Under the pieces are notes generated by a model. The model had not been told where the DNA came from. It was given only the letters and a program-made list of their open reading frames with translations, and ran no database searches. The translations under genes and the position numbers were made by a program. 42,847 nt of DNA from a virus, in IMG/VR virus record IMGVR_UViG_3300022748_000008, one strand, 5' to 3'. This document shows positions 243 through 42,847 of the stretch, one piece after another (within the stretch, counting starts at the first letter, position 1; every line of letters begins with the position of its first letter).

Positions 243-398
243 TCAAGCCCTCCAAACAAACAAGTCGAGGGCGGTGACGATAAAGCCAGCGGCGCACACA
301 AGTGAAAATGCCCAAGCCTTGATCTTGGCGCGGCGCATTTCGCGCAAGCGGTTCTCGATGGTGGGGATGTAGTTTTGGCGGTGTTGACTGAATTGCAT
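243..398 (-). CDS. Small membrane protein (51 aa), below the ORF-track cutoff
   Basis: Hand translation gives MQFSQHRQNYIPTIENRLREMRRAKIKAWAFSLVCAAGFIVTALDLFVWRA. An AGGAG Shine-Dalgarno sequence lies about 8 nt upstream, there is a hydrophobic C-terminal helix, and the stop sits 2 nt before the next start at 240. Confidence 0.5.
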   Translation of the reverse strand: MQFSQHRQNYIPTIENRLREMRRAKIKAWAFSLVCAAGFIVTALDLFVWRA

Positions 399-432
399 TT
401 GTCGTTTCTCCTGTTGTCGTTGAGTGGCTTTA

Positions 433-452
433 CTATACCGCCAACGGAATAG
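433..452 (-). promoter_or_regulatory. Palindromic element S1: CTATACCG-N4-CGGAATAG, with a TATAGT -10-like hexamer on the minus strand (432-437)
   Basis: The same 20-bp inverted repeat occurs at 6490-6509, with a degenerate copy at 36748-36767. It is flanked by TTGTCGTT (414-421) and AACGACAA (455-462) inverted arms. Confidence 0.55.
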
Positions 453-522
453 AAAACGACAAAGGAGCCGAGAAATACCCTGAAAATATTTCTATCGGCC
501 CCTCGGTGGTGTTAGCTTTTAC

Positions 523-3917: not shown

Positions 3918-4694
3918 TTAGGCCGAACGGCTGGCGAGTTGCTTTTCTTCGTAGACGCGCACGCCGTCGATCTTCATTGTTTCGCGCATGGCCTTCGCCA
4001 TTTGGTTGAGCGCGGAGGTGTTCACATCGAGCAGGTTGAGGAATTGCGGGTTGGCGGCAACGAAGGCCACCAGCGCGGCTTTGTCGGTGCACTCGGCCTT
4101 CCACGCACTACGCATTGAAACGCCGGACACCTTGGCAACGGCTGGCGCTGCGACTGGCGCGGTCATCACTTGCGCGGTGGCGGCGAGGCTGGCGGCTTCA
4201 ATGGCTGCTTCGGCTTGCACCTCGGCGGCTTTCTCGGCGTCCCCTGCTTCGATCAGCTTGGCGGCTTCGGCTTGGGCTGCGGCTTCACGCTCGGCGGCTT
4301 CTTTGGCAATGCGGGCTTGCTCGGCGCGAATCGCGGCCTCTGCCTTGCGGCGTTGTTCGGCGGCGATGCGCTCTTGCTCCGTGGTGTAGCCGATCATCTT
4401 GCGTTTGATGATCGCCTCGGCTTGTTCAAGGTATGCGCCAGGTGCGCGAAACAGGTCGTTGACAGCTTTAAGCGCCTTGTTGATCGGGCCGGTGATGGCG
4501 GTGCGCTGTTCTTCAAGCGTCTTGGCCTTGGACTTGATCGCTTTCAGTTCGTCGGCTGCGAGGTCGTAGGTTTCCTGCGAATCGATGACCATCGACTCGA
4601 CCATTGCCAGCGCGGATTGTGCGCGGGTGTTGAGTTGGTTCGCGTCGGGCGCGGCGATTGTCGCCAGCGGCGCGAAGATGTTTTCTGTTGTCAC
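3918..4694 (-). CDS. Ala/Glu-rich coiled-coil protein of the recombination module (258 aa, function unknown)
   Basis: A GTG start overlaps the stop of the exonuclease gene (GTGA). It has a long AEAAK-type coiled coil. The longer track start at 4766 would overlap the exonuclease gene by 76 nt. Confidence 0.6.
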   Translation of the reverse strand: MTTENIFAPLATIAAPDANQLNTRAQSALAMVESMVIDSQETYDLAADELKAIKSKAKTLEEQRTAITGPINKALKAVNDLFRAPGAYLEQAEAIIKRKMIGYTTEQERIAAEQRRKAEAAIRAEQARIAKEAAEREAAAQAEAAKLIEAGDAEKAAEVQAEAAIEAASLAATAQVMTAPVAAPAVAKVSGVSMRSAWKAECTDKAALVAFVAANPQFLNLLDVNTSALNQMAKAMRETMKIDGVRVYEEKQLASRSA

Positions 4695-5259: not shown

Positions 5260-6126
5260 TTACGCCGCCATCAAGTGAGCTTTGACGGTATCGAACTGCT
5301 CGGGCGTGATCGTATCGAGGGATTCAACGCCCTTTTCTTTGAGCACGGAATCAACCTCAAGGCCAAGCGCCTTGCACTTGTTCTCAATCCACTTGAGTTG
5401 GCCTGCGGCGACTGGCTTGGGTGCGGCATCGGTCTGGGTGGTCTGCTTTTGCTCAACCGTCTGCGCGGCTTCGGTCTTGGGCTTGGGCATAGCCACGCGG
5501 GGGGTCGCTTCGGCCTCGATGGTTTCGCCGTCGAACAATGCTTTGCCTTCCATTTCTTCTGCGGTGGCCTCTGCGCCGATTTCGGGGAATGCCATGCGCA
5601 AGGCTTGGGCTTGGGCGCACTTGGCAAGCTGACCGTAGGGGCGCTTCTTCCACATTGCGTTTGGCGCGGTGGTGTCCTTGCCTGCGGTGGCGTAGTTCTC
5701 TTTCCATCGCTCAACGGCGGTGAAGTCAGCGGTGACACCGTCAGGCAATCGGCGCTTGACTGTGACCTTGCACCACTGTGGGTAGGTGATTTCAACGCCG
5801 CCAACCTTCTCGGTCACGTCAGGGCCAAAAATCGGCTCATCGATGCCGCCGTACGCGTTGGAGCGTGCAGCCTGAGTGCGGTAAAGGCCAATACCGGGCA
5901 TCACCACGTCGCGCATCGACTTGGTGTTCTTGTCCCACATGGGGACGATGTGCACGGGCTTTTGCATCGGGTCTAGGCCAGCGGCTTTGCAGTAGCCCAA
6001 GACCATTTTGATGCTCGTGACTTGAGCACCGGGATACAGACTGGTGGCTAAGACTTCAATAAGCTCGGCTTCGCTCATCTGCAGCGCGGGCAGCATTGTC
6101 GTTTCCTGTGTAGTGATTGCGTTCAA
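5260..6126 (-). CDS. recT: RecT/Bet-family single-strand annealing protein
   Basis: ELIEVLATSLYPGAQVTSIKMVLGYCKAAGLDPMQKPVHIVPMWDK...KRPYGQLAKCAQAQALRMAFPE. A TTG start is preceded by AGGAGTAAACC. Confidence 0.9.
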   Translation of the reverse strand: MNAITTQETTMLPALQMSEAELIEVLATSLYPGAQVTSIKMVLGYCKAAGLDPMQKPVHIVPMWDKNTKSMRDVVMPGIGLYRTQAARSNAYGGIDEPIFGPDVTEKVGGVEITYPQWCKVTVKRRLPDGVTADFTAVERWKENYATAGKDTTAPNAMWKKRPYGQLAKCAQAQALRMAFPEIGAEATAEEMEGKALFDGETIEAEATPRVAMPKPKTEAAQTVEQKQTTQTDAAPKPVAAGQLKWIENKCKALGLEVDSVLKEKGVESLDTITPEQFDTVKAHLMAA

Positions 6127-6151
6127 GGTTTACTCCTGAGGTTGGTTGTGT

Positions 6152-6451
6152 TTATGCAAAGAGGGATTCGATTTCGTTGACCGCTGCAGCTTTGGCAATT
6201 GCTTGAGCAGCAAGGCGTGCGGCGCGTTCTTGGGCTTCTGCCAACATTTCGCGGGCTTCCTCAACGCTGATTTTTTCGACGCCGTTGTGAGGAACGAATT
6301 TGTAGAGTTGTGTGCCTGCTTGGTTTGTCAGGATGTAGGCATCAGGCATGTAGTCGCCGGGTGTTGCAACTGCAGCCTTCACGACCAATGAGAGGAAGCC
6401 AACTTTCACTGTTGCGCCGACTGTCCAGTTTTGTTTTGTCTTGGTGATCAT
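6152..6451 (-). CDS. Hypothetical protein (99 aa), first gene of the leftward recombination operon
   Basis: An internal ATG is preceded by CCTCAGGAGTAACAGC. The track N-terminal extension runs into the promoter/operator region. Confidence 0.6.
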   Translation of the reverse strand: MITKTKQNWTVGATVKVGFLSLVVKAAVATPGDYMPDAYILTNQAGTQLYKFVPHNGVEKISVEEAREMLAEAQERAARLAAQAIAKAAAVNEIESLFA

Positions 6452-6489
6452 GCTGTTACTCCTGAGGTGTTTCGTTGTCGATGGCTTAA

Positions 6490-6509
6490 CTATACCGCAA
6501 TCGGAATAG
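6490..6509 (-). promoter_or_regulatory. Palindromic element S2: CTATACCG-CAAT-CGGAATAG, with minus-strand TATAGT (6489-6494)
   Basis: It shares extended homology with S1 (GCTTWACTATACCGC..CGGAATAGA). The flanking arms GTTGTCG (6474-6480) and CGACAAC (6521-6527) are inverted. Confidence 0.55.
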
Positions 6510-6598
6510 AAGACAGCCAACGACAACAAATATATTTCTAATGGTTTGCGAAACGTCATAGGTTTTGGCTATTGGCTTTGATTGTCTGCGGTCTGCCG

Positions 6599-6627
6599 AC
6601 TATATCCAAAAATCAATACTTCGCCAA
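6599..6627 (-). promoter_or_regulatory. Candidate leftward early promoter (PL-like): -35 TTGGCG, 17-bp spacer, -10 TATAGT embedded in TTGGATATAG
   Basis: The minus strand reads TTGGCGaagtattgatttttggaTATAGT. The TGGATATA motif is shared with the rightward promoter at 7497-7504. Confidence 0.4.
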
Positions 6628-6658
6628 GCCAAAAATGGCTAAATGGAAACGATAGGCG

Positions 6659-6685
6659 AAAAAAAACCCGGCATCAGGCCGGGTT
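6659..6685 (-). terminator. Rho-independent terminator of the repressor operon
   Basis: The minus strand has stem AACCCGGC / GCCGGGTT with a 5-nt loop, followed by eight T. It lies 20 nt after the stop at 6705. Confidence 0.8.
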
Positions 6686-6704
6686 ATTGGTACGTGGAAA
6701 GGGC

Positions 6705-7016
6705 TTACTTGATGTTGATGACTTCTGCCAGCGGGTGTTTCGATTTAGCGCGGCTGGCGAAGGTGCGCAGCTTGGTCTTGATGCGCGTCAACACGGCATT
6801 GATGGGCAATACATGCTCAGGCTCGACATTGACTGCGCGTGACCTAATGTCGCCATCTTCCGTAACCATGACGCAAATGCACGCGACTCCCTGTCGGTTA
6901 GGTTGACAGTCGATTTCTCCTATGCAGCCCTCACGCACGATCATCTTGCGTTCATTGGTTGCCGCCCAACTTCCGGGCACGGCGTGGATTTGTATTACCT
7001 GCGTCTTTCTTTCCAT
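6705..7016 (-). CDS. Hypothetical protein (103 aa) immediately downstream of the repressor, the position lambda rexAB occupies relative to cI
   Basis: The ATG at 7016 is preceded by a GAGGAA SD. It overlaps the repressor ORF 3' end by 65 nt in another frame and ends just before the terminator. Confidence 0.5.
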   Translation of the reverse strand: MERKTQVIQIHAVPGSWAATNERKMIVREGCIGEIDCQPNRQGVACICVMVTEDGDIRSRAVNVEPEHVLPINAVLTRIKTKLRTFASRAKSKHPLAEVINIK

Positions 7017-7440
7017 GGTTCCTCTGTCGTGATGCTGTTGGTGAACGGCCTGCCGCCCTGCGCATAGCTTGTTGCATGGCGGGTTGGGCCGGGTGTTCTT
7101 CATTGAAACTGAGTGTGGATTGTTGAGCCAAAGTGAACTCAATGAACGCAACAATCTTTGACTGTTCTGCCTCGGGAAGCGCACCTACTTTTTGCAACGC
7201 AACACTCATGCCCGGTGAAAGCATTTCAACAGGGTCGCGTCCGAATGCTTGTGCAATTGCATCAAGATTGTCGATGTTGGTACCGGTGCGTGCGCGAAGT
7301 ATGCGGCTGATGCTGGACTGACCAATACCTGTCTTCTCTGACACCTTCACCTGAGTGTCGAGGTCGGGCCGCGCTTTCATCCATGCGCGTAAGGCCTCTG
7401 CAACGCGCTCTCTGATCGGCTTTGCCATCCGGCGAAGCAT
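6952..7440 (-). CDS. cI-like HTH (XRE family) repressor
   Basis: The HTH is VSEKTGIGQSSISRILRARTGTNIDNLDAIAQAFG. It is divergent from the cro-like gene. The start is uncertain (TTG 7452, ATG 7440 or ATG 7428), none has a clear SD, and no S24 peptidase motif was seen. Confidence 0.7.
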   Translation of the reverse strand: MLRRMAKPIRERVAEALRAWMKARPDLDTQVKVSEKTGIGQSSISRILRARTGTNIDNLDAIAQAFGRDPVEMLSPGMSVALQKVGALPEAEQSKIVAFIEFTLAQQSTLSFNEEHPAQPAMQQAMRRAAGRSPTASRQRNHGKKDAGNTNPRRARKLGGNQ

Positions 7441-7510
7441 ATCCAAATCCAAATAGAAATACTAGGGATTCCCCGATTTTGCATAATAGCCAAAAATGGA
7501 TATATACTCA
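7436..7510. promoter_or_regulatory. Divergent promoter/operator region (OR-like)
   Basis: The rightward promoter is TTGCAT (7479-7484), a 16-18 bp spacer, and TATATA/TATACT (7501-7508). ATATCCA (7439-7445) and TGGATAT (7497-7503) form an inverted pair. AGCCAAAAATGG (7488-7499) is repeated at 6628-6639. Confidence 0.5.
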
Positions 7511-7538
7511 CCACAGAAACAACAAGCAAGGAAGTGTG

Positions 7539-7766
7539 ATGAGTACAGCAGAACGCGTGCGCCAAAAGTTGATCAAGACGGGCGCAACACAGGTGCAGAT
7601 CGCGGCATCGACTGGCATAGGACAAGCCAGCGTCAGCCGATTTTTGCGAGGCCAAGGTGATGCCAAAGTCACCGTGGTGGACAAGATGGAGGCCTTTGCT
7701 GACCAGCAGCTTGAAATCATCAAGCGTGCGAAGCGTGCCGAGCTTCGGGTGAAGGACGCGGGATGA
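7539..7766 (+). CDS. Cro/cII-like HTH regulator (75 aa)
   Basis: MSTAERVRQKLIKTGATQVQIAASTGIGQASVSRFLRG. There is an AAGGAAG SD, and it is the first rightward gene. Confidence 0.7.
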   Translation: MSTAERVRQKLIKTGATQVQIAASTGIGQASVSRFLRGQGDAKVTVVDKMEAFADQQLEIIKRAKRAELRVKDAG

Positions 7767-8686
7767 ACTATTACCCGTTCCACATCGGGGACTATGCGGC
7801 GCACACAGCGCACCTTAGCCCCATTGAGGACATTGCATACCGACGTTGCATTGACCTTTACTACCTCCATGAGAAGGCTTTGCCGCTTGATTTGGCAGAG
7901 GTGGCCCGCCTTATTCGTATGCGTGACCACGCCGACACCGTGGCGGCTGTTGTGCGCGAATTCTTTGCTCAAGGCGTTGACGGTTGGTATCACGACCGAT
8001 GCAACGACGAAATCGAGCGTATGCAGGACAAGCAGATTAAAGCCAGAGCGTCGGCTCAAGCATCGGTCAACGCCCGCAGAGCGAACGCTCAACGTCCGTT
8101 AAACGAACGCTCAACGGACGCTCAACAAGACGCGCAAACGGATGTTGAGCTACCAACACCAACACCAACACCAACACCAACACCAAAAGATACCCCCCCT
8201 ACCCCCCGCAAGCGGGTGGCGGCTGCAAATCGCTTTGATGATTTCTGGTTGGCATGGCCCAAGGGCGAGCGAAAGCAGGACAAGGCCAAGTGCCTTGACC
8301 ACTGGAAACGAAACCAGCTTGACGAGAAGGCCGAGGCGATCTTGGGCGACGTGCGAACGAAGCGGGGCACCAAGAAATGGGCCGAGGGCTTTGTGGAAGC
8401 TCCGTTGGTCTACCTGCGCGGCAAGCGCTGGCTTGACGGCGTAGTGCCTGAGGCTGATGGCGGCGCAGAGCCGATGGACTGGCGTGAGACAGCCAAGGGC
8501 ATTCGTGCCAAGGGCATTGAAATCGGTGTCGGTGACTGGAATGAGCACGACCTGAGCGCCAACCGAGAGCATTTCCCTGCTTACCGTGCACGGGTTGAGA
8601 GGCGCGTTTTGGAGTTGGAAGGCGGTGCGCCCGACAAGGCCGGACAAAAGCGCGTAGCTGAACTCATTGCGGGTGTTGCGCGGTGA
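7763..8686 (+). CDS. Replication initiation protein, N-terminal DUF1376 (YdaU-like) domain
   Basis: MNYYPFHIGDYAAHTAHLSPIEDIAYRRCIDLYY matches the DUF1376 signature. It has a central (PT)5 linker and a C-terminal FDDFWLAWPK...RWLDG module. Confidence 0.75.
   Translation: MNYYPFHIGDYAAHTAHLSPIEDIAYRRCIDLYYLHEKALPLDLAEVARLIRMRDHADTVAAVVREFFAQGVDGWYHDRCNDEIERMQDKQIKARASAQASVNARRANAQRPLNERSTDAQQDAQTDVELPTPTPTPTPTPKDTPPTPRKRVAAANRFDDFWLAWPKGERKQDKAKCLDHWKRNQLDEKAEAILGDVRTKRGTKKWAEGFVEAPLVYLRGKRWLDGVVPEADGGAEPMDWRETAKGIRAKGIEIGVGDWNEHDLSANREHFPAYRARVERRVLELEGGAPDKAGQKRVAELIAGVAR
8082..8150 (+). repeat. Iteron-like repeats inside the replication gene (candidate origin)
   Basis: CGAACGCTCAACG occurs at 8082-8094 and 8104-8116, GGACGCTCAACA at 8116-8127, and an inverted copy GTTGAGC at 8144-8150. 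Confidence 0.45.
8153..8182 (+). repeat. Hexanucleotide microsatellite (CCAACA)x5 encoding (PT)5
   Basis: Five perfect tandem copies were read directly, plus a degenerate sixth copy (CCAAAA). Confidence 0.95.
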
Positions 8687-9763: not shown

Positions 9764-9965
9764 TTCACATCAATATCGTGACCCTATGTTGGTCCTTGAG
9801 GCCAAACAAATGCGCGAGGCGCGGTTTGCCAAGAAAAGCGGGTGCATGGGCTGCGTCCATAAATCCGAGTTGTGGGGCATGGCGTATTGCAAGTTGAGCA
9901 ACACCAAACCGGGCATCGTCAACATGCGCCGCTGTGGTCAGTACCAAAACACGGGGGCGCGATGA
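9753..9965 (+). CDS. Hypothetical Cys-rich protein (70 aa)
   Basis: The ORF overlaps both neighbours by a few nt. It contains CMGCVH...YCK...RRCG. Confidence 0.45.
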   Translation: MAFDSHQYRDPMLVLEAKQMREARFAKKSGCMGCVHKSELWGMAYCKLSNTKPGIVNMRRCGQYQNTGAR

Positions 9966-10652: not shown

Positions 10653-10677
10653 AAGCCGCCTCAACAGGCGGCTTTTT
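10653..10677 (+). terminator. Rho-independent terminator 1
   Basis: The stem AAGCCGCC / GGCGGCTT has a 6-nt loop and is followed by a TTTTT run. Confidence 0.75.
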
Positions 10678-10737
10678 CATTTGTACCGTGGCTTTTGTTG
10701 TGTTTCGTGGTTTTTCATGTGTCTCCTGAGGGTGATT

Positions 10738-36535: not shown

Positions 36536-36724
36536 TTATTTCTTCCGCTTGAACTTCAATATTCCGGGGCGCACACGCGCACCCGCGACCACTTGCGGGG
36601 AAGTTGGCAAAATCCAACTGCCCCCGATCTTCTTGGCACCCACCACGCGGCCTTCGGCACATAGCGTGCGCATTCGGCGCTCAGTCACCCCTAGTTTTTT
36701 TGCCGCGTCTTTGAGCGAAATCAT
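36536..36724 (-). CDS. Excisionase-family/MerR-like HTH protein (62 aa)
   Basis: MISLKDAAKKLGVTERRMRTLCAEGRVVGAKKIGGSWILP matches the excisionase-family DNA-binding domain. The start was moved to ATG at 36724, which has an AGGAAAG SD. Confidence 0.65.
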   Translation of the reverse strand: MISLKDAAKKLGVTERRMRTLCAEGRVVGAKKIGGSWILPTSPQVVAGARVRPGILKFKRKK

Positions 36725-36747
36725 TGCTTTCCTTTTTTTGTGCTCAA

Positions 36748-36767
36748 CTATACCGCAAACGGAAGCC
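36748..36767 (-). promoter_or_regulatory. Element S3: CTATACCG-CAAA-CGGAAGCC (half-degenerate copy), with minus-strand TATAGT (36747-36752)
   Basis: The left half and flank GCTCAACTATACCGCAAACGGAA match S1 and S2. TATAGT lies 22 nt upstream of the xis-like ATG. Confidence 0.45.
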
Positions 36768-36805: not shown

Positions 36806-36833
36806 GGGACGGGTTAGCGCCGTCCTGCTTTTA
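36806..36833 (+). terminator. GC-rich hairpin plus U-tract (candidate terminator/attenuator)
   Basis: GGACGG-gttagcg-CCGTCC is followed by TGCTTTTAT. It is enclosed by a longer-range pair GAGGACTA (36798-36805) / TAGTCCTC (36869-36876). Confidence 0.35.
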
Positions 36834-37287
36834 TGCAGAGCTACACGGACAACGCTGCTTTATGCGAGTAGTCCTCAGTCGTGATGGTGATAAGCGAAAT
36901 CAATAGCAAGACCGAGTGACCGGAAACGCTCGGAGGCGCGAAACAAACTAGCTGGATCGGGCTATCCGAACGTGTGGAAGCGACGCGAGTACGCCAACGG
37001 GTCAATGAAAACAGTACCGGCCCCACACGATGCCGCAGGATCATCCCCTGCACCATCAACCACTGCTACGGAGTTGCTATCTGAGAGCCGCGCTACGTGA
37101 CGAATCAACCGGTTAAGCGCTCCATCTATCCATTGAACTACGGGGAGGTGATGGGGTTGGCGGTGGTTGCCGCCTGTTGGCTCTGGTGGTAAACGTCAAA
37201 TAAATCCGGGCCTTATATCAGCACTTCGATTTACGACAATCAACGCAAACTTGCCTCACTGCTACCAAAACTGCTACCGTAGCAGTT
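36834..37287. other. Candidate attP region (non-coding, repeat-bearing)
   Basis: About 450 bp without a credible ORF lies next to int. CTGCTTT(T)ATGC occurs twice (36825-36840, 36855-36868). ACTGCTAC occurs three times (37062, 37258, 37270). The palindrome CTGCTACCGTAGCAG is at 37271-37285. The core cannot be identified without the host sequence. Confidence 0.35.
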
Positions 37288-38313
37288 ATGGCGTCAATCC
37301 TGAAAGTGAAGGGCCTGTGGCGTGCGCAGGTCCGTAAGGCGGGTCATGCTAGCACAGCACAGTCATTTCCTACTCGGGCCGAGGCGCTGAAATGGGCGCG
37401 AAAGGTTGAGGCCGATTTCGACAAGGGAAAGCCCCTCAAACCGTCCGAAGTCACCGTGTCGGACATGATTGCCCACTATCGGCAAGCGCGGGAAAAGTCA
37501 GGCCGTCCGATCAATCCGAAGTCCAACGAGCATTACATGCTCAACAACCTGGCTGCAGCCTTCCCCGGCGAAAAGGTCGCCACCCTCAAATCGCAGCGCA
37601 TCGTGGCCTACGCTCAGGCCCGCCGAAAATCCGGTGTCGGCGGCTACACGGTCAACATGGAGATTTCCAAGCTCGGTACCGTCATCCGGCATACGTCAAG
37701 CCTGCTCGATCTTGACCTACCGGATTGCATCGGCAAGGCGAGGCCTCTGCTGCATCACCTGCACCTCATTGGGCAGGGTGGGGAGAGGGACAGACGCCCA
37801 ACGGCTGACGAAATCGGGCGTTTGTTCGCGTGGTTCGCCGCCAACCCACAATACGGCCTGCCCATGGTCGATGTGGTCAAGGTCGCCATGCAATGCGCCC
37901 TGCGGCGCGGCGAGGTATTCCGCATCCTGTGGTCAGATTTGGACATTGAAAAGCGGCTGATCTTGGTGCGCGACCGCAAAGACCCGCGCCGTAAGGTCGG
38001 CAACCATGAGCTTGTGCCTTTGGTGGGCGATTCGCTCGACGTGATCATGCGCCAGCGGCGTGTAGATGTACGAATCTTCCCCCATGAACCCGGTACCGCG
38101 TCCAAGTATTTCAAGTGGGCTTGTGACGCCTGCGGCATTAAGGATTTGCGGCTGCACGACCTGCGCCACGAGGCGACGAGTGCGCTGTTTGAGGCCGGTT
38201 GGAACGTGCCCGAGGTCGCCGTGGTGACGGGCCACAAGGATTGGCGCAACCTCAAACGGTACACCAACCTTGACCCGGCAAAGGTCGCCAAGAAGGGGCA
38301 GAATGCAGGGTAA
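37288..38313 (+). CDS. int: Tyrosine integrase
   Basis: The catalytic region is ALRRGEV...HDLRHEATSALFEAGWNVPEVAVVTGHKDWRNLKRYTNL (R, HxxR, H, Y). Confidence 0.92.
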   Translation: MASILKVKGLWRAQVRKAGHASTAQSFPTRAEALKWARKVEADFDKGKPLKPSEVTVSDMIAHYRQAREKSGRPINPKSNEHYMLNNLAAAFPGEKVATLKSQRIVAYAQARRKSGVGGYTVNMEISKLGTVIRHTSSLLDLDLPDCIGKARPLLHHLHLIGQGGERDRRPTADEIGRLFAWFAANPQYGLPMVDVVKVAMQCALRRGEVFRILWSDLDIEKRLILVRDRKDPRRKVGNHELVPLVGDSLDVIMRQRRVDVRIFPHEPGTASKYFKWACDACGIKDLRLHDLRHEATSALFEAGWNVPEVAVVTGHKDWRNLKRYTNLDPAKVAKKGQNAG

Positions 38314-38790
38314 ATGACGCCCGACAACAAAATTGCCAAGCGTATGTTTGTGTCTGCCCAACAGTTTGAACGGGCCGCGAGTCTGCTAGAGAAAAACATC
38401 AGCGTCAAAAACTATCACGCCGGGTTGGGCGTTCAGCCATTCATCACCTGCGGTACCTTCGCGCTTGAGTTGCACCTGAAATGCCTGCTTGCCATTGCCA
38501 CCGGGAATCACGTCACAGGCCACAGGATGACGGTTCTATTCGGCAAGCTGCCACGCGCTGACAAGGACGGCATTTTGGCGCACATTCGCAAGGTATATCG
38601 TGACCAGTCCGTGCCTCTCTCTTTTATAGATGATCGGCTCAAGCTGATGGACAATGCCTTTGTCGAGTGGCGGTATTTACATGAGGCCAAGAAGATAAGC
38701 ATCGACAGTCGGTTTCTTGGGCGCATGATTTGGGCTTGCCAGCAGCACACCAGAACGCTGCGGCCTAAATGGTTCGCTAACTACCCATAG
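38314..38790 (+). CDS. HEPN-like helical protein (158 aa), translationally adjacent to int
   Basis: FALELHLKCLLAIATGNHVTGHRMTVLFGKL......FVEWRYLHE resembles the HEPN pattern (E..LK..l....H.l..Lf ... RY). The TAAATG junction links it to int. G+C is about 47% by hand count (38581-38700), against 70% in the int 3' end. Confidence 0.45.
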   Translation: MTPDNKIAKRMFVSAQQFERAASLLEKNISVKNYHAGLGVQPFITCGTFALELHLKCLLAIATGNHVTGHRMTVLFGKLPRADKDGILAHIRKVYRDQSVPLSFIDDRLKLMDNAFVEWRYLHEAKKISIDSRFLGRMIWACQQHTRTLRPKWFANYP

Positions 38791-39011
38791 AAAAGCCAAT
38801 TCGCCTCGACCCCGCAAGCCTTGGCGATGCGCTCGACGCGCTTTTTCCCCGGTCTTTCACCATTGACGACGATCTTTCGCATGGCTGAGTAGTCGATGGC
38901 GGCGAGCTTTGCTAGCTGCGTCACCCGCGACGGCTTCCGCCCGCGCCCCTCGCGCACGTCGATTGGTGGCAGCTTGCCCATGGCGGTTTTGAGTCGGTCA
39001 GAAAATGTCAT
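38781..39011 (-). CDS. XRE-like HTH protein (76 aa), last gene of the long leftward operon
   Basis: VTQLAKLAAIDYSAMRKIVVNGERPGKKRVERIAKACGVEANWLFYG. The start was moved to ATG at 39011. Confidence 0.6.
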   Translation of the reverse strand: MTFSDRLKTAMGKLPPIDVREGRGRKPSRVTQLAKLAAIDYSAMRKIVVNGERPGKKRVERIAKACGVEANWLFYG

Positions 39012-42616: not shown

Positions 42617-42847
42617 GCTTGTTCTCCTGTCGCTTTGGCGATGGCGGCGCGGGCTTCACGAACTGCTTTCCAGCCGGTGACTAACCCCTCACACATCGGG
42701 CAAGTCTCTGCCATGTGGTTGCACCCGAAAGTTTTTGGCTTCTCATCGTGGTCGGTGGAATGGCTGTGGAAGCGGTCTACCATTCCTTGCAGAGCATCCA
42801 ACAGCTCAGGCGCTGCGGCGATCAGGTTGACGTTGTTGGCACCAAAA
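42613..42847 (-). CDS. C-terminal part of the junction-spanning 115-aa ORF (see 1..240)
   Basis: The frame is open to the window end. It contains CNHMAETCPMCEG. The track start at 42801 is a TTG internal to the longer ORF. Confidence 0.6.
   Translation of the reverse strand, partial: FGANNVNLIAAAPELLDALQGMVDRFHSHSTDHDEKPKTFGCNHMAETCPMCEGLVTGWKAVREARAAIAKATGEQA
42721..42847. repeat. Terminal direct repeat, copy 2 (identical to 1..127)
   Basis: Same as copy 1. Confidence 0.95.

Follow-up and report, generated by a model that had tools for sequence, protein, structure and literature searches.

A palindromic candidate operator fused to the -10 element of three predicted leftward promoters in a temperate phage, and a small HTH_17 protein as its putative regulator

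The second immunity region of phage P22, in which Arc and Mnt act at Pant, relies on a very small autoregulated repressor whose dyad lies in the stretch separating the -35 from the -10 element of a strong promoter, and this circuit is independent of c2/cro. Arc and Mnt are ribbon-helix-helix proteins, and they control one divergent promoter pair and an antirepressor. Apl of phage 186 is a further Xis-like winged-helix protein that doubles as a transcription regulator. Likewise, Cox of phage P2 and RdfS of an integrative and conjugative element (ICE) bind attP as well as promoters (PMC3936717, PMC11963761). In this study, we describe a 20-bp palindromic element, S, that is present in three copies (S1, S2, and S3) in a virus record from IMG/VR (IMGVR_UViG_3300022748_000008). 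The record comprises 42,847 nucleotides, and we refer to this whole stretch as the window. Our comparisons suggest that each copy of S joins the -10 of a leftward promoter to an operator that is distinct from those of the cI/Cro switch. The candidate binder is a protein of 62 amino acids (aa) from the HTH_17 family, whose gene follows S3.

The 18-nt core of S, ACTATACCGCNANCGGAA, has exactly three matches in the window (432-449, 6489-6506, and 36747-36764), all on the plus strand. The expected number is 0.16, and none of 100 shuffled sequences reached three copies. The whole-window motif scan that had been proposed in a preliminary description of this DNA thus returned these three copies only, with no additional site at up to three mismatches. 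The palindrome CTATACCG-N4-CGGAATAG occupies 433-452 (S1) and 6490-6509 (S2), and the corresponding sequence at 36748-36767 (S3) is CTATACCGCAAACGGAAGCC. When read leftward, the sites take the form CTATTCCG-N4-CGGTATAG followed by T. The two arms are complementary at seven of eight positions, with an A/A clash at position five, and the dyad core is T(T/A)CCG-N4-CGG(T/A)A. All three copies also share the flank GCT(T/C)(A/T)ACTATACCGC. On the minus strand, each copy contains the hexamer TATAGT (437-432, 6494-6489, and 36752-36747), which matches TATAAT at five of six positions and is separated by 33, 37, and 22 nt, respectively, from an ATG (398, 6451, and 36724) that is served by a GGAG or AGGAA Shine-Dalgarno sequence. 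Relative to the putative start sites, the dyad spans about -27 to -8, and its proximal arm provides TATAG, the first five bases of the -10.

Read on the minus strand, S1 (CTATTCCG-TTGG-CGGTATAG) and S2 (CTATTCCG-ATTG-CGGTATAG) have both arms in the same form, whereas S3 (GGCTTCCG-TTTG-CGGTATAG) retains the core TTCCG-N4-CGGTATAG and the proximal arm intact but is degenerate in the outer 3 bp of its distal arm. On the same strand, the S1 dyad is enclosed by an outer inverted pair composed of TTGTCGTT (462-455) and AACGACAA (421-414), which together span 414-462. The S2 dyad is likewise enclosed by an outer pair (6474-6480 with 6521-6527, spanning 6474-6527) and additionally by a middle UGGCU/AGCCA tier. 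Farther upstream are AGAAATAT(A)TTT blocks at 484-493 and 6528-6539. The first of these, AGAAATATTT, lies on the minus strand at about -68 to -59 of S1, and S-type promoters of two related phages (L119 and L237) are preceded by this block at a similar distance. The second, AGAAATATATTT, lies on the minus strand at about -57 to -46 of S2, which is the position of an UP element. Re-reading of the sequence confirmed the coordinates originally given for the palindromes, the shared flank, the TATAGT hexamers, the start codons with their Shine-Dalgarno sequences, the outer pairs, and the A/T blocks. The original statement that no good -35 is present holds for S1 and S2, but S3 does have a weak -35, TATACA (36774-36769; four of six matches), at a spacing of 16 bp.

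The strongest evidence that S sites serve as promoters comes from other phages. A motif scan of IMG/VR yielded L014, which has the S3 gene, SSB, and the endolysin in common with the window. This phage carries three further copies, each forming the spacer and -10 of a gene promoter with a TTGCTT or TTGCGT -35, a 17-bp spacer, and a TATAGT -10. Additional members of this clade (L119, L120, L121, L236, L237, L240, and L257; phages of the clade are called L-phages below) were found via loci anchored on the protein encoded by the S3 gene, and each has two or three S-type promoters oriented like its own left operon. A looser motif scan added L203 from the same clade, L169, and both L150 and L202, which are on one 104-kb contig. 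The TTCCG-N4-CGGTATAGT block is positioned with exactly 17-bp spacing from TTGCNT in L014/L121, L119, L120, L237, L203, and L257, and it lies 16-17 bp from TTGACA in L169 and in the 104-kb contig, where three S-type promoters have a TTGACA -35. Relatives carry two or three such promoters per genome, usually three, and a Shine-Dalgarno sequence and an ATG follow each one. In an alignment of 19 distinct S sites (S1 plus 18 others), the -10 is TATAGT in 18 and TATAAT in one.

Furthermore, 45 related phages carry a homologue of the gene downstream of S2, and in all of them it opens the pL operon. The TATAGT or TATAAT hexamer and leader (TATAGTTnAnCCATCGAC...) of pL in these phages align with the -10 of S2 and its leader, TATAGTTAAGCCATCGAC. 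The 45 relatives have their own phage-specific dyads in the spacer and -10 of pL, which recur 1.2-1.5 kb upstream at cI/cro, and none of the 45 carries the S motif. As judged from this alignment, S2 is a positional homologue of pL whose operator slot holds a different putative operator. We consider it likely that S is a promoter combined with an operator. S1-S3 would then be leftward sigma-70-type promoters, whose activity in the window is predicted, with S1 and S2 lacking a -35. The original proposal of a co-regulated promoter family, in which the -10 lies beneath an operator for a symmetric regulator, gains support from the canonical -35 elements of the relatives, the homology between S2 and pL, and the conserved half-sites.

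The same location within a promoter could also be used for positive control. A protein bound at S might activate transcription, or it might be loaded as a processive antiterminator so that internal terminators are read through. S lies between the -35 and -10, as do the binding elements of Q and AlpA. The AlpA-dependent promoters of Pseudomonas aeruginosa share GGGACG (-25 to -20)-N5-GGTA (PMC7969949, PMC9371919), and TTCCG (-24 to -20)-N4-C-GGTA (-14 to -11) in S falls in the register of the AlpA element. The missing -35 elements of S1 and S2 are also compatible with a need for activation, and S-type promoters come after terminator-like hairpins in L121 and at S3. However, the promoters that hold S are near consensus in most lineages (TTGACA or TTGCTT, 17 bp, TATAGT) and require no activator, and MerR-type activation would need spacers of 19-20 bp rather than the 17 bp seen in relatives. 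Both AlpA and Q depend on a sigma-dependent pause, which occurs at a -10-like hexamer shortly after the start (PMC9371919), but inspection by eye revealed no TAnnnT within 25 nt past any S site, and the aligned leaders share no such hexamer within about 25 nt of the -10. Moreover, AlpA is a 21Q-like eight-helix protein of which one molecule binds, whereas S is a two-fold dyad and the candidate protein is a 62-aa Xis-like winged helix. The Q-like gene of the phage itself (9872-10561) has a pR'/tR' region just downstream that lacks S. Overall, positive control through S seems improbable to us.

The aligned sites also provide information on whether S is preserved as DNA or as RNA. The sequence CGGTATAGT is invariant or nearly so among the 19 sites, with an invariant core, GGTATAGT, that is preceded by a C in 17 of them. 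Sixteen sites retain TTCCG, and the central 4 nt vary freely and carry low information. The outer CTA of the distal arm varies with no matching change in the proximal arm. None of the eight pairs in the inner stem is changed on both sides among the 19 sites, and the covariation score is 0.084, compared to 0.085 in shuffles. The combination of conserved arms, a free center, and no compensation argues for a protein-bound DNA dyad and not a conserved RNA hairpin. Thus, the conserved object appears to be a double-stranded dyad with a non-contacted center, which is the signature of a symmetric protein pair.

These data bear on the alternative that S acts as RNA, by forming a two- or three-tier hairpin in leftward read-through transcripts that serves in processing, antitermination, or translational gating. 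Such a structure might be an RNase III-type processing or stabilizing site, a nut/put-like signal, or, at S1, a stem that pairs with the Shine-Dalgarno sequence and limits translation to S1-initiated mRNA. The predicted fold of S2 RNA (-28.3 kcal/mol, z = -6.55) is more stable than any of 200 shuffles, and that of S1 RNA is -20 kcal/mol (z = -3.05) with CUCCU:AGGAG pairing included in its stem. Both exceed their shuffles because of the outer inverted pairs. In addition, S2 lies about +65 to +118 from the inferred pL start, and nutL/putL-type elements in lambdoid phages sit at this same distance from the pL start. The register in which the outer arms pair differs between S1 and S2, such that the pairing may be kept and not the sequence, which is a weak indication with a sample of two. 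In contrast, S3 (z = +0.19) and all three L121 sites (z = -0.74 to +0.58) fold no better than shuffles, and none of the relatives has the outer arms seen at S1 and S2. A search of the window at Rfam gathering scores found no family at the S sites and only an abiF RNA elsewhere. If TATAGT is the -10, then a transcript starting there would be missing the 5' arm. Unlike for nut/put, there is no copy in the rightward operon, and no U-run follows the hairpins. Given the one-sided variation noted above, an RNA role for S in any of these forms is improbable.

The preliminary description had raised the two-tier RNA element as an alternative, and had suggested weighing RNA structure conservation against DNA palindrome conservation. 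That comparison, made on the 19 sites, gave no covariation, and as a general function the RNA proposal is not supported, with only S1 and S2 forming the hairpin and S3 and the relatives folding like shuffled sequence. The extended hairpins of S1 and S2 are specific to this window and do not define the element, but they may matter for read-through transcripts. As a separate observation, the S1 hairpin in read-through RNA (405-470, minus strand) extends such that CUCCU pairs with the AGGAG Shine-Dalgarno sequence of a 51-aa membrane-protein gene. This gene might be translated only from S1-initiated transcripts.

The immunity circuit of the phage uses other sites. The TGGATATA sites that were originally assigned to the cI/Cro switch are parts of 14-bp dyads of the ATCCA-N4-TGGAT type at 6604-6617, 6627-6640, and 7488-7501 (OR), and the dyad at 6627-6640 is a perfect AGCCA-AAAA-TGGCT. 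These cI-type operators and the S core have the same 5-4-5 geometry but different sequences. The cI-controlled pL is located at 6599-6640 on the minus strand (TTGGCG at 6627-6622, a 17-bp spacer, and TATAGT at 6604-6599) and is flanked by the operators at 6604-6617 and 6627-6640. This promoter lies about 105 bp upstream of S2, such that a tandem pair of promoters, each with its own type of operator, leads into the left operon. S2 and the cI-controlled pL (6627-6599) are therefore separate promoters. No S copy with up to three mismatches is present in the cI/cro region or at the cI-controlled pL. The possibility that S is a variant cI operator was rejected because a search for TATNCC-N6-GGNATA finds S sites only.

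A similar separation is observed among the relatives. The pL of L121 has the same layout as that of the window and lacks S. In the L-phages, S-type promoters are located further down the left operon, and two of three also have a cI-type dyad abutting the -35. This dyad differs between phages (ATCCATTTATGGAT in L121; ATGCATTTATGCAT in L120 and L257) while the S block is unchanged. By sequence, S is a putative second operator that is independent of immunity specificity and is kept between heteroimmune phages. The second regulatory circuit, unrelated to the cI/Cro sites, that had been proposed earlier is supported by the absence of S from the cI/cro region and by its retention despite different cI operators.

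The immunity region also contains a gene, called X here, at 6705-7016 (minus strand; 103 aa) that overlaps the 3' end of cI by 65 nt and ends at a strong terminator (6685-6665). The overlapping cI-X pair is conserved in L120, L121, and L257. X has no family or solved relative, and database searches for homologues of this gene found only two.

A candidate for the S-binding protein emerges from gene order. In every lineage with enough sequence, an HTH_17 protein with the recognition helix xRRVxxL is encoded downstream of a same-strand S promoter. In the window, its gene is directly behind S3, about 22-23 nt after the -10. In L009, a 68-aa gene separates a full S dyad from the HTH_17 gene, at about 0.25 kb, and L169 has two small genes between S and the HTH_17 gene, at about 0.6 kb. 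The corresponding gene is about 1.9 kb into the S-promoter unit of the L-phages and about 1.5 kb after the third S promoter of the 104-kb contig. We also compared a profile of this HTH_17 subfamily to 125 loci (1.12 Mb) that had been recovered by the DNA motif alone, most of which are chance matches inside genes. The profile matches only L014, L146, L169, and L009, and all four of these have the motif in an intergenic, promoter-like context.

The HTH_17 protein of the window is encoded by a single-gene unit (36536-36724, minus strand) and is predicted to consist of a Xis/MerR-like winged helix and a basic tail. Its match to PF12728 (25.2 bits, E = 2e-5) is below the Pfam cut-off of 27, whereas its homologues in L121, L009, and L169 score 30.5-45 bits and that in L122 scores 27.6 bits, just above the cut-off. 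A direct search of IMG/VR found no close relatives of the 62-aa protein, and alignment with the L014 homologue was needed. An AlphaFold model (predicted local distance difference test [pLDDT] 76) has two helices and a beta wing, and then the basic tail. The closest structures are DNA-binding domains of phage Xis, RacA, MerR-family, and BldC proteins, the best being Pukovnik Xis and lambda Xis (template modeling [TM] score 0.64), with weak E-values because of the small size of the protein.

Based on this genomic association, we infer that the HTH_17 product of the S3 gene is the most likely S binder. A single-gene unit with a dyad over its own -10 fits the classic picture of a self-repressing regulator, for which the other copies would be further targets. 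The preliminary description had named phage helix-turn-helix genes (7539, 8886, 38781, and 9962) as candidates, and the best candidate was not among them.

Two additional loci have related but distinct arrangements. L122, which also speaks for the HTH_17 protein, was found through the protein and not through the DNA motif. Its HTH_17-Fic fusion gene has a promoter consisting of TTGATA, a 17-bp spacer, and TATACT, and the 13-mer ATATTATTCCGAT is located in the spacer. An inverted second ATATTATTCCGAT is positioned about 30 bp upstream such that the pair (9898-9952) surrounds the -35. L122 and S thus have a half-site in common but differ in its arrangement. The heptamer TATTCCG is present nowhere else in the 11 kb of this locus. 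At 6830-6940 of L013, a 133-kb AT-rich viral contig, there are one perfect S dyad and two degenerate copies that form a larger palindrome, all within 130 bp. These S-like dyads lie upstream of a consensus promoter, and no HTH_17 gene is present in the 14 kb of L013 that we examined.

Several observations weigh against an S operator that is bound by the HTH_17 protein. L256 encodes an 84% identical HTH_17 protein and lacks S in the 446 nt upstream of the gene, which is where the contig begins, and the gene follows another gene directly. Distant HTH_17 homologues (L242-L248 and L263 from Clostridia) have no S motif, and the Clostridia representative also lacks S-like half-sites. HTH_17 proteins are common in phages, and the 62-aa protein has no evident dimerization domain. 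In the window and the L-phages, S is also accompanied by the cI family, the overlapping gene X, and the Q-like protein, and therefore association within the clade alone does not single out HTH_17. Turning to the DNA, neither S1 nor S2 has an acceptable -35, the best candidates being TTGTCG (19-bp spacing) for S1 and TTGGCT (20-bp spacing) for S2, and a promoter scan returned nothing for them. Thus, these two promoters could be weak or activator dependent. S2 also lies in the leader of the cI-controlled pL, where an RNA or roadblock role is possible. Three short contigs (L259-L261), in which the HTH_17 homologue is internal to an operon, are uninformative.

If S is an operator, then its binder might instead be the product of gene X, Cro, the 75-aa helix-turn-helix protein (38781-39008), or a factor of the host. 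Like all L-phages, the window contains the cI family, X (103-120 aa, in each case overlapping the cI end), and a Cro whose recognition helix, Q-[AS]-[ST]-[IV]-S-R, is conserved. All of these are absent from the 45 relatives that lack S. S and the cI operators share the 5-4-5 geometry and a TCC core, as expected for sites of paralogous helix-turn-helix proteins. Furthermore, L121a-like promoters without a cI operator need a repressor in the lysogen, and X is made with cI. However, X has no recognizable DNA-binding family, and the cI-cro region, where Cro must act, has no S copy. L009, L169, and the 104-kb contig have S and the HTH_17 gene but no detectable homologue of cI, X, or Cro in the available sequence. 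For a host factor, the 17-base pattern CTATTCCGNNNNCGGTATAGT gave 59 taxonomically scattered matches in 185,579 genomes, compared to an estimated 69 or so expected by chance, with no sign of a host regulon. We regard a binder other than the HTH_17 protein as unlikely, albeit with a real chance of being correct.

The regulon of a host transcription factor was rejected because the genome scan was only at chance level. Likenesses to sigma-54, IHF, LexA, FNR/CRP-type, and OxyR sites and to Correia elements were considered and were dropped due to unfit spacing or sequence. A literature search for the motif strings returned only primers and unrelated papers.

The fold of the HTH_17 protein raises another alternative, in which it is primarily a recombination directionality factor (RDF) of the Cox/Apl/RdfS kind. 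S3 would then be a site for the excision complex, and S1 and S2 would couple excision to early transcription. In addition to the structural similarity to phage Xis proteins, this reading draws on the location of S3 between the lysis cassette and int, with a presumed attP within 36840-37280, and on the presence of one S promoter just after int in L014, L203, and L237. However, the window has a separate excisionase-like gene (523-720; matches to DUF1233 and to a phrog excisionase), as do the L-phages (81-88 aa, before int). In the available sequence, the S sites of L009 and L169 are not beside an integrase gene, and known RDFs bind direct-repeat arrays or low-consensus DNA instead of a strict inverted repeat. 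A primary role in recombination is hence improbable, but such a role is compatible with, and not exclusive of, the model that we favor.

A bolder version is that S and the HTH_17 gene form a portable cassette that moves between unrelated temperate phages, with the protein not as a simple repressor but as a promoter-loaded factor that changes the downstream behavior of RNA polymerase. This factor would dock on the spacer dyad in the AlpA/Q register and bring about read-through of the terminators between the leftward units or, alternatively, attP-proximal excision coupled to early transcription. A small winged-helix protein would thereby use a strict inverted repeat for a task similar to that of Q or Cox. 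We give this reading only a slim chance.

The model that we favor is one of repression. Because most lineages have near-consensus promoters with a dyad over the -10, repression by occlusion is the simplest reading. In this model, S2 would drive the recombination and accessory genes, S1 would drive distal small genes across the circular junction, and S3 would drive the single regulator gene. A phage-encoded protein would bind the dyad, its operator, as a symmetric pair and would keep RNA polymerase out by occupying the -10 and the spacer. In this way, the HTH_17 protein would restrain its own production and would repress S1 and S2 without involvement of cI, which has its operators elsewhere. 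From the sequence comparisons, the sign of regulation is predicted to be repression, and we give the full model, with the HTH_17 protein as repressor at S1-S3, about an even chance of being correct. S1-S3 most likely constitute a small regulon that is separate from cI/Cro and is kept across heteroimmune and even unrelated phages.

The transcription units behind the three copies differ in content. The S1 unit begins with a gene (243-398, minus strand) whose 51-aa product has a hydrophobic segment at its C terminus and matches no family, and the unit extends over the circular junction as far as ~38781. At the head of the S2 unit is a gene (6152-6451, minus strand; 99 aa) that belongs to no family and is followed by genes for RecT, KTSC, NinB, SSB, RdgC, dUTPase, and an excisionase-like protein (DUF1233), which form a leftward recombination and accessory set. 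The structural and lysis genes form a rightward block.

The window is a temperate phage. Its ends carry an exact 127-bp repeat (1-127 and 42721-42847), which indicates a circular assembly of ~42.7 kb (about 42,720 bp). Identical sequence was recovered solely from metagenome contigs of about 42.8 kb. A cI-like HTH_3 repressor gene (6952-7440, minus strand) is divergent from a Cro-like gene (7539-7766), and a tyrosine integrase is encoded on the plus strand at 37288-38313. No nucleotide similarity to deposited phages was found for window positions 6100-7800, and the terminase has less than 60% protein identity to those of known phages.

Some further observations concern the attachment region and late transcription. 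CTGCTAC(C/G) repeats at 37062-37071 and 37258-37285, just upstream of the integrase start, may represent arm-type Int sites of attP. ARAGORN found no tRNA in the window, L014, L203, or L237 that would indicate attP. Just after the integrase gene of L014, the region at 4154-4412 has a reverse-strand open reading frame (ORF; 4154-4399) whose peptide resembles a translated tRNA 3' end, and this region may be a tRNA-derived attP core at about 150-250 bp from the nearest S promoter. The sole terminator-like hairpin after the rightward lysis genes (36806-36835, plus strand) lies past the antisense HTH_17 gene and S3, such that late transcripts would traverse the regulator gene and its promoter in the antisense direction. 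The Q-like ORF (229 aa) is conserved in the L-phages with 39% identity and is followed by a promoter-like sequence (TTGCCG, 17-bp spacer, TATCGT) and a strong terminator (10653-10682), which is the layout of a Q-type late antiterminator with pR'/tR'. The abiF RNA motif (Rfam RF03085; 31386-31422, plus strand) scores 46.3 bits, compared to a gathering score of 37. It sits between a baseplate/tail gene and a 679-aa tail-fiber gene, which is an odd site for a motif named for abortive infection.

Like the lambdoid OL and OR operators, S sites are dyads in the spacer and -10 of early promoters with a variable center and conserved half-sites, and S2 sits where the immunity operators sit in the pL of the 45 relatives. 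Unlike these operators, S is absent from cI-cro and from the cI-controlled pL, is conserved between phages with different cI operators, and is present once per promoter instead of as a tandem O1-O2-O3 set. The P22 Arc/Mnt region offers a precedent for a second circuit that is independent of the main repressor switch, but the S candidate is a winged-helix, Xis-like protein, its sites are at three dispersed promoters, and no antirepressor is evident.

MerR operators also combine a MerR/Xis-like DNA-binding domain with a dyad inside the promoter spacer. However, MerR spacers are 19-20 bp with a centered dyad, whereas the S promoters of relatives have 17-bp spacers and a dyad that is centered at about -17.5 and overlaps the -10. 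The 17-bp spacers exclude MerR-type activation. Moreover, MerR proteins have a coiled-coil dimerization helix, and the 62-aa candidate has no coiled coil. The AlpA and lambda Q elements (PMC7969949, PMC9371919) resemble S in lying between the -35 and -10 and in their register (xxxxCG at -25 to -20 and GGTA at -14 to -11). The AlpA element nevertheless is asymmetric and is used by one 21Q-like protein at a sigma-dependent pause, in contrast to the S dyad with no pause hexamer after it.

P2 Cox (PMC3936717) and ICE RdfS (PMC11963761) are, like the candidate, small (60-90 aa) winged-helix proteins with an excisionase fold that are encoded by mobile elements. They also bind their own and other early promoters and have one target close to attP, as would be the case for the S system. 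We detected no sequence similarity of the candidate to Cox, Apl, or RdfS, and the fold alone is similar. Furthermore, those proteins oligomerize on direct repeats or on DNA without a clear consensus, whereas S is a strict 8-4-8 inverted repeat on the -10.

This type of circuit is ordinary, and the general concept of phage regulation is unchanged by the finding: the system is of a familiar kind with a new member pair. The putative regulator-operator pair itself most likely has not been recognized previously. If our model is correct, then part of the early program in this phage, and in no fewer than three further phage lineages, is controlled by a second switch that is free of cI/Cro specificity and is carried by an excisionase-like protein of ~60 aa with a defined 20-bp operator. 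This would account for the identical sequence that heteroimmune relatives retain within promoters that otherwise diverge. The fusion of the operator to the -10 would also make S a compact repressible promoter module. The interest of S lies in the apparent portability of the pair and in a defined operator for a phage HTH_17 protein, which would give a concrete regulator-operator pair to the HTH_17 "excisionase family" of phage proteins, a very large group that for the most part lacks annotation.

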